Below, piece by piece: positions 52,843 to 57,444 of a stretch of DNA of 64,000 nucleotides. Below the pieces are notes generated by a model. That model saw only the letters and a program-made list of their open reading frames with translations, did not search any database and had not been told where the DNA came from. The translations under genes were made by a program, and so were the position numbers. Origin of the DNA: a phage. The stretch's first letter is position 1. Every line of letters begins with the position of its first letter. Where the stretch lies: the sequence record PZ386969.1; one strand, given 5' to 3'.

Positions 52843-53412
52843 ATGCACATTAACACAGCAATCATGAAACACATTATTCCTTTGTTAGCAAAATACGAAG
52901 GGGAACGCGCCGCGAAAATCCCTTTTGGAACAATTACCGAAGAAGTGAAACGCCTGACAGGTAAAAGTATCAATTTCCGTCGCGTTATTGAATCTGCCTT
53001 AGAGTTGGCTCGTTCTGATTTACGAAATCCAACATTTTCATTTAATATTGACATAACTTCTTCGCTTCGACAAGAAATGGAAGAATCATCACAAGCGCGG
53101 CGCAATCGTTTCCGTCATTTATATGTTCGTAACGAATTCTCTGAAGGTCGTGTTGGTATGAAACTGGAGTCTATTCGTTCTGACATTTGCTTCACTGTCA
53201 ACTATGTTTTAGAGCCAGAAAGCGGGCGCATTTATTTTGGCGCGATTATCGGTTTCTATGGGAACTCCATTAATGGTTGGGCAGAACGCGTTGGATTAAA
53301 AGAAACCCAGAACACTCATTCCACACCTTCTACCCATTATATGACGCATGAAGCTGCTGGCGAATATGTTTACCTTCTGCGTCGTGTTGTGAAGTTAGAA
53401 GTGTTAAAATAA
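52843..53412 (+). CDS. hypothetical protein (189 aa)
   Basis: ATG with GAGG RBS; first gene of the plus-strand block. Confidence 0.5.
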   Translation: MHINTAIMKHIIPLLAKYEGERAAKIPFGTITEEVKRLTGKSINFRRVIESALELARSDLRNPTFSFNIDITSSLRQEMEESSQARRNRFRHLYVRNEFSEGRVGMKLESIRSDICFTVNYVLEPESGRIYFGAIIGFYGNSINGWAERVGLKETQNTHSTPSTHYMTHEAAGEYVYLLRRVVKLEVLK

Positions 53413-53469
53413 CGCTTTATTCAATAAATAATTGCAGTAAAGTTATTTGCATGGAAGGGAGGGAACACT

Positions 53470-53616
53470 ATGTTTTACATGATGTTACTCCTCATCCTTC
53501 TGATCGGGATTACCTTTACTCTCCTGGGTCTACTCGATCAGTCCGGTAAACAGACGCCCACTTCGGCGCATCCGGTTTTGTGTGAAGGTTCGTCCGCACT
53601 GCTGTGGGCAGTGTAG
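53470..53616 (+). CDS. small hydrophobic protein (48 aa), absent from ORF track
   Basis: ATG preceded by AAGGGAGGG RBS; MFYMMLLLILLIGITFTLLGLL transmembrane-like segment. Confidence 0.4.
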   Translation: MFYMMLLLILLIGITFTLLGLLDQSGKQTPTSAHPVLCEGSSALLWAV

Positions 53617-55444
53617 CACAAAGAGGAGAGGACTTTTCAAATTAGCTTGGCTGTAGTAAAGTATTAAACACGAGGCGAATAGCGCGGTGGTAGTAGGGCT
53701 GGAACCCGAAACCAGGAAAGCCCAGTCTCAGGGCACCGTGACGAATAGAGGCGTAATATCAACCTCGCTGGTGTCGGTGGACGCACTGACCGTCGGAGAA
53801 CGAAACTCCCTGTTGTAGCGTGATTAGCTCAGAGAAGAGAGCGCCCCGTTGGCGAGTCGACACCAACACATAGGGGAGGTCGGGTCTGCCAAAATCCATC
53901 ACGCCGACAACATTATGAGTCTTCCATAGAGGGTTCATAATGTTGCGTCAAAGGGCAACACAAAGGTTCCTGTTGGTTGAATTAACTTGATTCATAGTTC
54001 CTACTGATCTTCCCGGATTCGAAGGATCACCAACAGGCGAGGCCGGATGCGTAAGTTCCGGTAAATCGATGGTGACGCCCTCGCAAACAAAAATAAAAGG
54101 TTTTATCAATAACGGGTTACAAAGTATAGTTAACCCACTGAACGGCAAGCTGTTTGAGTCCTGGCCACTCATAGTGTTGTGAGACCAAGACAGGTACGTT
54201 TAGGACTCAAACAGGTTTTCGTTTTCGTTGTGCGTGACTTTGCGGGTTTTTAGAAACTGACCAAGCAAATAACTGCTAATGATTCCGAAGTTCTGATGGC
54301 GGCGTAACAGCCTATAAGTCAGTGAGGTCTTCCGATTCCTCATCACCAAATTCGGCGCACTAAAATAGACGGGAGGGTGTGATTAATAAGCTCCCGTCGA
54401 CAATGCCGTTATATCTGACTGTCCAAAGGGGATAAGCTCCTGAGTAAGCAGAGGTGGGTTGCCTAAGTCAGATGGGATGTAAGGTCAGCGCTGGCCAAGC
54501 ATTTGGGTTCGACTCCTAAAAACGGCTCCACATCTTTGAGGATATTCTCACGAGTATCTTGAAAGATGTGAGCGAAGTCTTGCCATCAGCCCTGATCCCT
54601 GGCAGGTGAAGGGCACACAAATCGAAGTGCCTTGACAATTTATCTTAAACCCAAAGGTTGATCTACAAATTTGGGCGGCCAATCCGGTGGACGATAACAG
54701 CATATTGGGCCATACTGTTGAGTCAGGGCACTTCGATTTGTGAACTTTAGAGAGCATTGGGTGAAATAGACCATGCCTTGCAGATTGCGATGCCTACACA
54801 TTCCGGACACTGGTGGGCACCAAGAAGAACTCAGTAGCAGACGAGCCATCAGGGTTAGCTACCCGGCGCGGCGAGGACTGGGAGGCCGAACTAAGGGGAA
54901 ACCCGAGACAGGCGTAGTATTCTCAAGTTCACAAAATGAAGAGCATTTAAAGAGTTCGATTCTCTTTCAGGCCATTCGTGGTGTGATGTGAGTCATGAAT
55001 GTTCTTCATCTTTGGGTGATTCTATGTTGTCGGGCTATCAACCCATGCTTGCTGGAGCAACCAGCGGCTCTGAATCAACCAGCCAGCCTCGTTTGGTCCG
55101 AGCGTTAGAGGACAAGTTGCTTCTACATGGAAGCTGCGAGTTGCGACATTGGTTGCAACTTTGATGGCTCTGGATTTTATAAACCATGTCTATGGGTGAC
55201 GCGGGATCTTTAGTACCAGAGCTATCAAAGTTGTGTCCAACCCGATCTTACAAGCCCGTATCCCGGTCTGGTTAAGACTTGTAAGTGGAAAGCCCTGGAA
55301 AAATAAACGCCTGTGGCGAGGCTATGGTGCAAGCCAAAGACCCACAGAAGCGCGTTGCCGTGAGGCGCACAAACAGGCATGCATGAACTGATCATGCACA
55401 AACGGGATAAAGGGTTGACAGTCCTTGGTTGGTCACAATAATTT

Positions 55445-55521
55445 GGTCCTGTAGCTCAGTCGGTTAGAGCAGTGAACTCATAATTCATTGGTCATTGGTT
55501 CAAACCCAATCAGGATCACCA
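55445..55521 (+). tRNA. tRNA-Met (CAU)
   Basis: Manual cloverleaf: acceptor GGTCCTG/CAGGATC, D-arm GCTC-AGTCGGTTA-GAGC, anticodon loop CTCATAA, T-arm ATTGG-TTCAAAC-CCAAT, encoded CCA. Confidence 0.8.
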
Positions 55522-55655
55522 TATTGAGGGGCGATAGTTTAATGGATAGCTGTCCGGACAGTGAATCCTCATAGAGAACGGCTGGGCGGCCAAACCCAGC
55601 AGGTGAGGTGAAAAGCCTCAGACCCCGCCAATACAGTTTGTTGTAAAATAAATGT

Positions 55656-55683
55656 TTGTTCAATAAACTTTATATGGTATAGT
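55656..55683 (+). promoter_or_regulatory. sigma70-like promoter TTGTTC-N16-TATAGT upstream of tRNA-Asn
   Basis: -10 ends 9 nt before tRNA 5' end. Confidence 0.4.
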
Positions 55684-55692
55684 GATTTGCAA

Positions 55693-55768
55693 GACGATGT
55701 AGTTCAGTCGGTAGAACGGCGGTCTGTTAAACCGTATGTCGCAGGTTCAAGTCCTGCCATCGTCGCCA
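55693..55768 (+). tRNA. tRNA-Asn (GUU)
   Basis: Acceptor GACGATG/CATCGTC, anticodon loop CTGTTAA, T-arm GCAGG-TTCAAGT-CCTGC, encoded CCA. Confidence 0.8.
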
Positions 55769-56025
55769 GACAATGGGTGTGAACGAAAGTGAATAGGCAT
55801 AAAGTACGCGACCGACAAGCTCCAAGCCTCTGTCCAATAGCCGAACGGAATCCGAAGACGACGATAGTAGCGCCCACCAAATTCAGAGTGTAGAGGCTAC
55901 AGTAGTGCGCACCTCACGGGTTGCTACACCGGACACTCTGATACAAATCTACCGCCGCGTGGATTAGCTGAGGAAGGATGGCCGATGTCCTCGAGCGTGG
56001 CCCAGCACGCAGCGGCAGACCAAAT

Positions 56026-56109
56026 GTGAGTGTGGCAGAGCGGTCGAATGCAGGAGACTGTAAATCTCCCCGTAACAGCGCGGTGGTTCGAATCCATCCA
56101 CTCACACCA
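56026..56109 (+). tRNA. tRNA-Tyr (GUA), long variable arm
   Basis: Acceptor GTGAGTG/CACTCAC, anticodon loop CTGTAAA, T-arm GGTGG-TTCGAAT-CCATC, encoded CCA. Confidence 0.75.
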
Positions 56110-56329
56110 AACACAGTAAGCGTTGCAGCCAGCTGTGTATAAAATGGGGTGACTCCACATCGGAAACGATGCCCCAACTTCCAGAAATGGTCGGGCGCAA
56201 AGTCTGTAAAGTTCCAGGAGATCGAACCAGAAGGCACTGGTCGCCAGTTAACCAATCGGCGCTGAGAAGCGCGGGGAGTTGGGCTACGGCAGATCAAATG
56301 CTCAATCGGGTGTGAAGCCCGTCCAAATT

Positions 56330-56418
56330 GGAAGGTTGCCCGAGAGGTTTAAGGGACTCGACTGCTAATCGAGTGGGGCTTTTAGCCCCCGAAGGTTCGA
56401 ATCCTTCACCTTCCGCCA
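56330..56418 (+). tRNA. tRNA-Ser (GCU), long variable arm
   Basis: Acceptor GGAAGGT/ACCTTCC, anticodon loop CTGCTAA, variable-arm hairpin GGGGC/GCCCC, T-arm GAAGG-TTCGAAT-CCTTC, encoded CCA. Confidence 0.8.
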
Positions 56419-56634
56419 AATTACGGGCGTGACTTCCTGAAGAGTTAGAAGATGTGCATGTCGACTCTCTCGTAATCGGGTGTTTAGGAAGTTAAGAAAA
56501 TCGCGGCGAGGATAGTGAAATGCAAATAGCTTTCTCTACGTCGACGACTTCAGGTTCGACTCCTGACGCGCTCTCCCATAGGGTAGTACCAGTGCAAGCG
56601 TGTAGTCTTTCAACCCATCCCATCGATGTGGTGT

Positions 56635-56665
56635 AGCCGGATATCCTATCCGGCTTTCTTTTTAT
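56635..56665 (+). terminator. rho-independent terminator closing the tRNA cluster
   Basis: Stem AGCCGG/CCGGCT followed by TTCTTTTTAT. Confidence 0.65.
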
Positions 56666-56787
56666 CCCTGTCTTATTATCTTCTTATCGACCCAAGCATG
56701 TCCTCCTTTATCGTAGTTTGTTCAATGATACAAAGGGGGTTTAAAATTTAACCGTTAACCCCCTATCATAGATTTGAGGATACACTA

Positions 56788-57444
56788 ATGCGTAATGTTT
56801 CTATCTGGGAATTGAACGAAGTGATTTCCCGTGACACCCCTCCAATTGTCAGACTCTTCCGATACAAGGGTGTCAAGCGTACTCTGAATGAGTTCCTGTC
56901 GCCTGTTTACGTCTACCGTGATGGCGGGTTCTTCCGCCGCGATAAAAACATCCCGAACCTTGGTATGACGTTTGATTTGAGTATCAAAGGCCAGGTTGTA
57001 TTGATGGGTTATGATAGCCTGGAACAATCTGAGAAAGGCCAGGGCGCTCCACTTATGGTCTTCGGTTCGTTTGAACAAGCCGTGCACTGGCTGATCAGAA
57101 ACGGATATGATTTCTATGGCGAAGAAAGCGCCAATTGGCGTCGTCGCAAGGTCAAGTCTGTTGATCTGGTGGATTTGAATCTGATGTACCAGGCCATGGC
57201 TCGCGAGTACGAAAAGAATCTCGTCAAGCCTGTCGCCCAGGAGAACAATGTTGTTAACGACGCAACTGAGTCTTCTCATCATGACGTGAACATCGTTCCA
57301 GCCTGTGAAACGAAAGCGCCGACACCGCCCACTCCTCCGGCCAGTCGTGTTCTGAATGATCAGGGTGCTCCAGTAAAACAAAAGGTCAAAAAGCCAACTT
57401 TCATGGATAACATGATGAAGTTCCTTCGTCTGTTCAAGAAGTAA
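56788..57444 (+). CDS. hypothetical protein (218 aa)
   Basis: ATG with GAGGA RBS; follows the tRNA-cluster terminator. Confidence 0.5.
   Translation: MRNVSIWELNEVISRDTPPIVRLFRYKGVKRTLNEFLSPVYVYRDGGFFRRDKNIPNLGMTFDLSIKGQVVLMGYDSLEQSEKGQGAPLMVFGSFEQAVHWLIRNGYDFYGEESANWRRRKVKSVDLVDLNLMYQAMAREYEKNLVKPVAQENNVVNDATESSHHDVNIVPACETKAPTPPTPPASRVLNDQGAPVKQKVKKPTFMDNMMKFLRLFKK

Follow-up and report, generated by a model that had tools for sequence, protein, structure and literature searches.

A widespread phage RNA module with a tmRNA-like tag frame and a 5′ arm complementary to host tmRNA

The DNA analysed here is a 64,000-nucleotide (nt) stretch of sequence record PZ386969.1 (hereafter the window, in whose numbering positions are given), and comes from an Ackermannviridae-type myovirus, with Enterobacter phage fGh-Ecl02 and Escherichia phage A221 as its nearest records. 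At positions 53617-55444 lies a block with few open reading frames (ORFs), flanked 5′ by the gene for a conserved membrane protein of 48 amino acids (aa) (53470-53616; phrog_8415) and 3′ by a cluster of four + strand tRNA genes, for tRNA-Met (55445), tRNA-Asn (55693), tRNA-Tyr (56026) and tRNA-Ser (56330), all found by ARAGORN and at the Rfam gathering score. The most informative feature of the block is a module of ~185 nt on the + strand (54215-54398, hereafter the tag module), which combines a reading frame resembling the tag template of transfer-messenger RNA (tmRNA) with a 5′ arm antisense to the host tmRNA. A preliminary description of the block, made from its letters alone, had called it poor in ORFs, and this was borne out, as its longest ORF is 74 aa and the eight longest have no match in Pfam or PHROGs. 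The same searches speak against a hidden or frameshifted protein gene, the outcome which that description had set against a region of structured RNAs. The arm (54215-54253) and the tag frame (54275-54307) sit between the elements that it listed, and neither was among them.

Across ~210 Ackermannviridae records the block is 75-95% conserved and its annotation is mostly blank. BLAST comparison with a dozen relatives resolved it into a mosaic of modules with sharp borders (~54082, 54214, 54402, 54550-54614, 55082, 55218), which are independently present, absent or replaced between genera. Every module for which there are enough sequences yields a consensus fold with some compensatory changes, and several consist of long stems of 13-21 bp around a variable ‘cargo’. 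As conserved non-coding modules adjoining tRNA genes, they support the suggestion of structured RNAs analogous to the small stable RNAs of phage T4, the analogy being one of position.

Tag frame and fold of the module

The tag module was discovered when a sub-segment of the block (~54221-54389) matched unrelated phages, namely the 47-kb siphoviruses DS8 and Bas77-81, the P22-like HK620 and Erwinia phage Bue1, and it was in their copies that a mini reading frame resembling a tmRNA tag was first read. A scan of viral contigs together with BLAST gave 51 loci, from which 36 distinct sequences were aligned; counts of variants below refer to these. In the window the frame occupies 54275-54307 on the + strand and reads GCT AAT GAT TCC GAA GTT CTG ATG GCG GCG TAA, or ANDSEVLMAA*. 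ARAGORN in relaxed mode, a check proposed in the preliminary description, reports this tmRNA-like tag, while the tRNAs that it proposes appear only at -ps80/-ps70 and have implausible folds or introns. The frame follows an A-rich single-stranded leader (54254-54274), in which AUA occupies -6 to -4 relative to the resume codon. This ATA is kept in 35/36 variants and corresponds in place to an AUA of E. coli tmRNA, where U85 and A86 are presumably the frame-setting nucleotides.

All 36 variants have ten codons followed by UAA, with no frameshift and no premature stop. The 13 distinct tags that they encode all match AN[DE]xxx[LK]x[AV]A, a pattern close to the host tag, ANDENYALAA. Codons 1-3 and 10 show third-position changes only, and tag position 6 is hydrophobic (V, F, Y or M) with differing codons. 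The frame appears to be under coding-type constraint. Conventional translation was considered and rejected, there being no conserved start codon and no upstream in-frame AUG.

From its last codons onward the frame is embedded in a compact fold. A helix-5-like hairpin (54293-54322) holds the last tag codons and has the stop codon in its loop; its outer helix is 100% paired, with CUGA/UCAG in 18 variants and CUGG/CCAG in 18. It is followed by a hairpin UGAGG/CCUCA with pseudoknot A (54323-54355), in which the loop CCGA (54332-54335) pairs with UCGG (54352-54355); here 98-99% of alignment cells are paired and each helix has three double-change pairs (e.g. CCAG:CUGG and CCAA:UUGG). Pseudoknot B (54356-54398), of the H type, joins CGCAC (54356-54360) to GUGUG (54377-54381), which stands in the loop of a hairpin formed by 54368-54375 and 54391-54398. 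The pseudoknot B helix is again 100% paired, with CGCAU:AUGUG in locus L075, a G-U to A-U change in the copy from SSU5-like phage-plasmids and GGAGU:ACUCU in Bue1. The length of its linker follows that of the stem, and the 15-nt loop of its hairpin, GGUGUGAUUAAUAAN, is otherwise invariant. Over the whole fold 96.6% of cells are paired and 17/29 pairs have double changes, a result equalled in 0/500 shuffles, while slid controls reach 31-47% pairing. A covariance model built from the alignment gives a single match in the window, at 54218-54400 with 169.6 bits.

With tmRNA (SsrA; RF00023, permuted RF04321, RF01849) the module shares the elements of the mRNA-like domain: an A-rich leader with AUA at -6 to -4, a GCN resume codon, a 10-residue, degron-like AND...AA tag (ending in AA or VA across the family), a stop codon in a helix-5-like loop and downstream pseudoknots. 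It differs in length (~185 nt versus 363 nt), in the number of pseudoknots (two versus four), in bearing a 5′ arm antisense to tmRNA itself and in having no tRNA-like domain. Specifically, the 7-bp acceptor stem with G3-U70, the T-arm and the 3′ CCA that would surround the message are absent from the tag module, and in the late leader of HK620 and the non-coding gap of DS8 there is no T-arm at all. Default ARAGORN makes no tmRNA call. RF00023 scores only 6.6 bits, from the T-loop alone, and tmRNA_permuted (RF04321) scores 19.8 bits over the tag in the window and 29.8 bits in phage Ag3, against a gathering score of 47; alpha_tmRNA likewise has a sub-threshold match over the tag.

Relaxed ARAGORN additionally offers a complete or permuted tmRNA at 54149-54530 or 54219-54526, models that we rejected as their acceptor strands are unconvincing. 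The proposed 5′ strand, GCUGUUU, is locked in a covarying local hairpin; the tRNA-shaped RNA that would supply the other strand (54405-54530, described below) closes on its own GCCGUUA, with a compensatory change in phage GOT; and phages Ag3, SKML-39 and KN2-1 have the tag module without this 126-nt RNA. The self-splicing element raised in the preliminary description was not borne out, since no group I intron model matches even at E≤10, and the Rfam check likewise gave no match to RNase P or complete tmRNA models at that level. More broadly, group I introns, RNase P RNA, GOLLD, ROOL and other large phage RNAs have no gathering-score match in the 64-kb window, with no match to group I intron, RNase P or the large phage RNAs at E≤10 in 53300-57000, and the tRNA model (RF00005) has none at E≤10 within 53300-55444.

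Complementarity of the 5′ arm to host tmRNA

The arm, GGUUUUCGUUUUCGUUGUGCGUGACUUUGCGGGUUUUUAG (54215-54253, + strand), is antisense to host tmRNA nt 67-107, a region that runs from pseudoknot 1 (PK1), of which it takes in the 3′ strand, through the A-rich linker and the resume codon into the tag as far as codon 6; E. coli ssrA from RefSeq served as the reference. Its conserved 5′ blocks GUUUUCGU, GCGAC, UUUGCGG and CUUUUUA have no partner inside the module. The arm is instead collinear with the reverse complement of ssrA 63-110, with UAGUUUUCGU complementary to tmRNA nt 97-106, GCGAC to 87-91, UUUGCGG to 75-81 and CUUUUUA to 68-74. As calculated with RNAduplex, the arm of the window forms a duplex of -37.1 kcal/mol with E. 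coli ssrA 61-112, compared with -19.8 for its own tag region, the corresponding means over the 36 variants being -34.6 and -17.2 kcal/mol. Against the whole tmRNA, the first 60 nt of the window copy reach -49.9, where shuffles give -35.6 +/- 3.5. In this control z was about -4 to -8 for 4/5 variants tested, the window included, and the fifth, the SSU5-like copy, was within noise (-33.4 versus -30.1 +/- 3.0). Unconstrained long RNAduplex outputs were set aside as meaningless.

Among the 36 variants the pairing blocks are invariant or nearly so, while the length of the spacers between them varies. The SSU5-like phage-plasmid lineage retains another subset of blocks (tmRNA 95-104 and 82-91), and this retention of different blocks argues for selection on pairing, beyond shared ancestry alone. 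In the leader of the module, CCACAAAGAUAAAU-GCA, one recognises tmRNA 75-92 (CCGCAAAAAAUAGUC-GCA) in sense orientation, though diverged, and because codons 3-6 of the module differ from those of the host, the arm is predicted to tell host from self. Between E. coli and Pantoea, whose tmRNA was obtained via SmpB look-ups, the target region differs by one extra A only; the invariance of the arm in phages of Escherichia, Salmonella, Klebsiella and Erwinia fits this conservation of the target. The arm has an extended complementarity to an accessible target, the single-stranded start of the message in host tmRNA, and this complementarity is conserved in the family and above chance. For the 3′ part of the module we found only complementary runs of 7-8 nt to tmRNA, possibly due to chance, such as that of the loop UGUGAUUA with nt 85-92.

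Occurrence of the family and candidate explanations

The family is present in 416 phage records from several unrelated lineages, among them Ackermannviridae, siphoviruses of 41-62 kb and lambdoids, phages of ~70 kb and phages of Felix-O1 size. The module is kept in at least five phage lineages as well as in prophages and phage-plasmids. In E. coli chromosomes it occurs at 141 places, and both that were examined, in lambdoid prophages, lie between Q and the holin gene. A divergent copy with the tag ANEEVYLAVA is found in 219 E. coli plasmids of ~94-117 kb, presumably SSU5-like phage-plasmids; in the one plasmid examined, pRM9131-1 (locus L134, 2468-2629), it occupies the gap upstream of a tRNA-Asn/Tyr/Thr/Ser cluster, where PGAP annotates nothing. 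Nowhere is the family annotated as RNA. tRNA genes follow 0.3-1.8 kb downstream on the same strand in 15/51 loci. In species-representative bacterial genomes the family appears to be rare, as a 26-base pattern derived from the window gave a single match (Pseudocitrobacter). At locus L103 an ORF stands in place of the arm and tag part, and the terminal pseudoknot hairpin is kept.

In siphoviral copies a near-consensus sigma-70-like promoter lies directly upstream, so close that the RNA must start 3-5 nt before the conserved GUUUUCG. Upstream of the module in the window, a consensus scan found the promoter-like TTATCA-16-TATAGT (54103-54130, + strand; 9/12), a putative promoter that lies inside TCAATAA-N12-TATAGT. 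The motif TCAATAA-N11-12-TATAGT has two copies in the 64-kb window against 0 expected, one ahead of the tag module (54106-54130) and one ahead of tRNA-Asn (55660-55683), and may be a phage-specific promoter for stable RNAs. By eye, the homologous region of Bue1 has similar motifs, …TTCAATAAG… and CAGTATAGTTA….

The explanation that we favour, with moderate confidence, is that the tag module is a phage anti-tmRNA RNA that would block host trans-translation and may also re-programme tagging. Judged by its sequence, it belongs to a phage RNA family, widespread and so far undescribed, that is composed of two tmRNA-derived halves. What follows on its expression, its pairing in the cell, its effect on trans-translation and any use of its tag is inferred. 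The block would probably be transcribed on the + strand and then cut into small structured RNAs, the module RNA being expressed either from its own promoter or within a tRNA-region or late-leader transcript. Once annealed to nt 67-107 of host tmRNA, the 5′ arm would cover the tag template and inhibit normal tagging, much as synthetic oligonucleotides against ssrA do in cell-free systems. The 3′ part would be a diverged sense copy of tmRNA's mRNA-like domain, mutated out of complementarity to its own arm, and the phage RNA could in addition act as a surrogate template on host tmRNA.

There are partial precedents for such interference. Oligonucleotides complementary to the tag-coding sequence are a standard tool against tmRNA in extracts, and in those of E. 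coli used for ribosome display they block trans-translation (PMC2373887); these are man-made DNA with no surrogate frame, directed at the same type of target as the phage arm. Complete phage tmRNAs are known from mycobacteriophages and Bacillus phage G (PMC4131195), and mycobacteriophage DS6A carries a tmRNA consisting of the tRNA-like domain only, a similar molecule having been found to inhibit tmRNA strongly (PMC4131195, PMC11915505). DS6A thus has the tRNA-like half only, which is thought to titrate SmpB, whereas the present family has the message-like half only, together with an antisense arm. The literature searched makes no mention of six of the tag peptides, of an anti-tmRNA RNA or of a phage tmRNA without a tRNA-like domain, and it contains no natural RNA that targets tmRNA by base-pairing and no natural counterpart of the anti-ssrA oligonucleotides.

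Several observations weigh against an anti-tmRNA role. The arm duplex is bulged, with a 5-nt A-rich bulge, a variable spacer and, in Vi01 and Bue1, a C-A mismatch, and in the predicted fold of the window the first GUUUUCG copy of the arm may be sequestered at the base of the hairpin that precedes it. The target is invariant in the hosts examined and so holds no changes that host/phage covariation could follow. Among the Ackermannviridae, the covariance model finds no module in LIMEstone1 or in Yersinia phage CAU_YEP3. The phage tags still resemble ClpXP degrons, which makes the benefit of a tag swap doubtful. Phages also generally profit from trans-translation (lambda-immP22 and Mu are cases in point), which makes simple inhibition less obvious. 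Finally, the arm could be an unselected remainder from the inverted duplication of a piece of ssrA, an origin that is argued against by pairing blocks that are invariant while the module's own tag region has diverged.

A stronger version of the anti-tmRNA explanation, in no contradiction with it and in our view tentative, is a swap of templates, in which host tmRNA, with its alanyl-tRNA-like domain and SmpB, and the phage RNA would together form an inter-molecular two-piece tmRNA, and rescued proteins would receive the phage tag. It would account for the coding-type constraint on the frame (third-position variation, fixed length and a hydrophobic position 6), for the conserved AUA at -6 to -4 and for a stop codon placed in the helix-5 loop as in tmRNA, and a pure inhibitor would have no use for a tag frame. 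Since the 3′ end of the arm pairs next to PK1 (nt 68-81), the phage leader and frame would exit the hybrid where the host frame normally begins, and the tag region of the module is no longer a good partner for its own arm (-17 versus -35 kcal/mol). Against it stands that ribosomes are not known to resume on a template tethered to tmRNA by an upstream duplex alone. An interrupted duplex of ~35 bp might moreover impede loading into the mRNA channel, disruption of PK1 may harm tmRNA function, and the fate of proteins with phage tags is not obviously unlike that conferred by the host tag.

The comparison with natural two-piece tmRNAs bears on this point. In these, the tag template lies on a piece separate from the aminoacylated piece and is held to it by base-pairing. 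A single gene gives rise to both, and they pair in the acceptor stem and helix 2, while the putative partner of the tag module would be an intact host tmRNA, paired over the host tag template. Such circularly permuted tmRNAs form a described family in alpha- and beta-proteobacteria and cyanobacteria (PMC11915505). The tag module does not belong with them (RF04321, RF01849-51): no acceptor piece co-occurs with it consistently, scores are sub-threshold, and siphoviral copies begin at a promoter 3-5 nt before the arm.

It is improbable, in our estimate, that the module is a protein decoy, titrating a tmRNA-binding factor (ribosomal protein S1, RNase R or a tmRNA-recognising defence nuclease) with its pairing to tmRNA incidental and the neighbouring tRNA-shaped RNAs likewise titrating tRNA- or SmpB-binding factors. 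The module is tmRNA-like in its message, helix 5 and pseudoknots, its invariant 15-nt loop suggests a sequence-specific ligand, and it clusters with many T-arm-bearing, non-decodable tRNA-like RNAs; a mimic with the tRNA-like domain only, of the kind encoded by DS6A, does inhibit tmRNA, perhaps by titrating SmpB (PMC4131195). A decoy, however, leaves unexplained why the arm is antisense rather than sense and why the tag is constrained as if coding. Likewise improbable is that the whole block, tag module included, is functionless debris of captured tRNA and tmRNA genes kept only by recent common ancestry and by horizontal spread along with tRNA clusters: its patchwork with deletions (such as 57 nt at ~54075 relative to Ag3), its empty stalks and homing-endonuclease insertions, the several T-arm elements that fail every tRNA test and the lack of the tag module in some Ackermannviridae speak of decay, but every tag-module helix has compensatory changes across otherwise unrelated lineages, all 13 tag variants are intact, the arm blocks stay invariant between variable spacers, the tRNA-shaped RNA is better conserved than its flanks and the module is retained in phages, prophages and phage-plasmids alike. 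The antisense orientation of the arm, its avoidance of self and the covariation fit either of these two readings less well.

Trans-translation by tmRNA and SmpB is the main bacterial ribosome-rescue pathway and an antibiotic target, and the sole phage interference with it reported in the literature searched is the tmRNA mimic with the tRNA-like domain only. Should an anti-tmRNA role be true, viruses would manipulate ribosome rescue directly, and the supply of a tag template in trans would have a natural precedent. Such a role would also explain a conserved ‘gene desert’ that is blank or mis-called hypothetical in hundreds of phage, prophage and phage-plasmid annotations, therapeutic Ackermannviridae candidates among them, and would provide a testable link between phage tRNA clusters and the control of ribosome stalling. 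Going further, and doubtfully, enterobacterial phages of many lineages might carry a trans-acting surrogate message that docks beside PK1 and whose tag is translated by rescued ribosomes; jointly with this, and no more firmly, the surrounding T-arm mini-RNAs and stalk cassettes might form a phage toolkit against the host tRNA and tmRNA machinery. The covariance model now permits annotation of the family.

Other modules of the block

Directly after the tag module comes a tRNA-shaped RNA of 126 nt (54405-54530, + strand). Its acceptor stem is GCCGUUA/AAACGGC and its T-arm UUGGG-UUCGACU-CCUAA; besides these it has a long arm, a second arm, a U as discriminator and a CCA that is encoded. A 7-nt anticodon loop is lacking, and its position 3:70 is C-G. 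The preliminary description had picked out its 3′ part, and TTGGG-TTCGACT-CCTAA was found at 54503-54519, followed by AAACGGC-T-CCA at 54520-54530, these being the T-arm, acceptor strand and CCA of the RNA. It is conserved at 95-99% in ~190 Ackermannviridae records, with flanks at 75-85%, and the divergent copy in GEC_vB_GOT has three compensatory changes, one (U-A to C-G) in the acceptor stem and the others in the long arm. The Rfam tRNA model has no match to 54405-54530, and our guess is that this RNA is a decoy for tRNA- or SmpB-binding factors. In phages S8 (locus L012, 2668-2736) and RCIP0012 the tag module and the 126-nt RNA are separated by a further tRNA-shaped RNA, of ~68 nt, with a GNRA-capped arm, a T-arm and an encoded CCA.

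At the start of the block, modules A and B (53617-54090, + strand) are 85-90% conserved, also in Yersinia phage CAU_YEP3, have 8-9 double-change pairs and include a perfect 15-bp hairpin (~53909-53947, + strand). Within them, too, is a remnant (54004-54085, + strand) with the hairpin GAUCUUCC[CGGAUUC]GAAGGAUC, then ACCA and then GCGAGG...CCUCGC; the T-arm-like element that had been noted here is present, with GGATTCGAAGG at 54016-54026 and ACCA at 54029-54032. The stretch 54016-54085 is what a deletion has left of a longer T-arm-bearing element, intact in Ag3, SKML-39, S8 and RCIP0012. Relative to Ag3 (locus L007, ~2250-2306), the loss of ~57 nt at ~54075 removed the T-arm TGTGG TTCGATT CCACA and left GCGAGG...CCUCGC joined around a small hairpin. 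The longer Ag3 version itself gets no tRNA call from ARAGORN or the Rfam tRNA model. The earlier proposal of degenerate or permuted tRNAs therefore stands in part, in that 54503-54530 belongs to a tRNA-shaped RNA and 54016-54085 is a remnant, but no element qualifies as a tRNA, whether decodable or permuted. The ‘regular spacing’ that had been seen between them (~490 and ~450 nt) is meaningless, as they sit in different, independently gained or lost modules.

Immediately upstream of the arm, a leading long hairpin, CUGUUUGAGUCC...GGACUCAAACAG, is predicted at 54150-54214 (+ strand); its stem covaries, with GGGCAC/GUGCUC in Ag3, SKML-39 and RCIP0012 in place of GAGUCC/GGACUC.

Stalk-like hairpins make up much of the remainder. 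An ‘empty’ one, CACAUCUUUGAGGAUA[10 nt]UAUCUUGAAAGAUGUG (54530-54572, + strand), carries in phage S8 (locus L012, 2863-2952) a 57-nt cargo with a T-arm. At 54617-54743 (+ strand) a stalk of ~20 bp, CACAAAUCGAAGUGCCUUGAC / GUCAGGGCACUUCGAUUUGUG, encloses ~85 nt of cargo, with 6 double-change pairs in a consensus fold of 7 sequences. Block G, for which there are only 2 sequences, contains a GGG-GAAA-CCC tetraloop hairpin (within 54893-54907, + strand), the GNRA-type hairpin noted in the preliminary description. A further stalk module, AUGAAGAGCAUU...AAUGUUCUUCAU, is predicted at 54931-55015 (+ strand), and its cargo holds AAGAG-UUCGAUU-CUCUU at 54950-54966, where the AAGAG-TTCGATT-CTCTT element had been reported. 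Its stalk is similar in sequence to those (GGUAAGAGCAUU...AGUGCUCUUUCC) by which the tag module is bordered in lambdoid and siphoviral loci. Modules H and I (55080-55444, + strand) have 9 and 5 double-change pairs, H including a long hairpin at ~55140-55240, and I ends in a promoter-like TTGACA-16-AATAAT (55415-55442, + strand; scan 11/12) directly before tRNA-Met.

Stalk cassettes of this kind, in the window and in loci such as L001, L003 and L102, have conserved stems of 13-21 bp, e.g. CACAACAGGUAAGAGCAUU...AGUGCUCUUUCCGUUGUGG, around a hypervariable cargo of 26-89 nt. There are 33 distinct cargos in the 51 loci, many ending in a T-arm-like hairpin. The long stems look like processing stalks of the RNase III type. 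The T-arm-bearing stalk modules and the tRNA-shaped RNA are real conserved structures and may be decoys for tRNA- or tmRNA-binding factors.

Stable non-coding RNAs among phage tRNA genes or in lambdoid late leaders also include T4 species 1 and 2 (rnaC, rnaD) and the prophage sRNA STnc100 of Salmonella (RF02076), neither of which matches the window in sequence or structure at any threshold; we know of no reported relation between the T4 small RNAs and tmRNA. Ag3 (locus L007, 3165-3274) has a sub-threshold STnc100 match (33.7 bits, E 4e-5), and elements GUGGUGAAUGCGC...GCCGGCCACCAC downstream of lambdoid stalks look related. HNH homing-endonuclease genes are inserted in the non-coding array of Klebsiella phage 0507-KN2-1 (locus L005, 2650-3210), of PMBT18, of FrontPhageNews and at locus L103.

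The spacers within the tRNA cluster and behind its last gene (55522-55692, 55769-56025, 56110-56329 and 56419-56787) likewise consist of ORF-poor, conserved modules, which suggests that the non-coding array runs on through the cluster to the sole + strand terminator-like site, at 56635-56655 after the last tRNA. The picture is of a putative + strand stable-RNA region continuous with the tRNA cluster. A further T-arm-like element, TCAGG-TTCGACT-CCTGA, lies at 56550.

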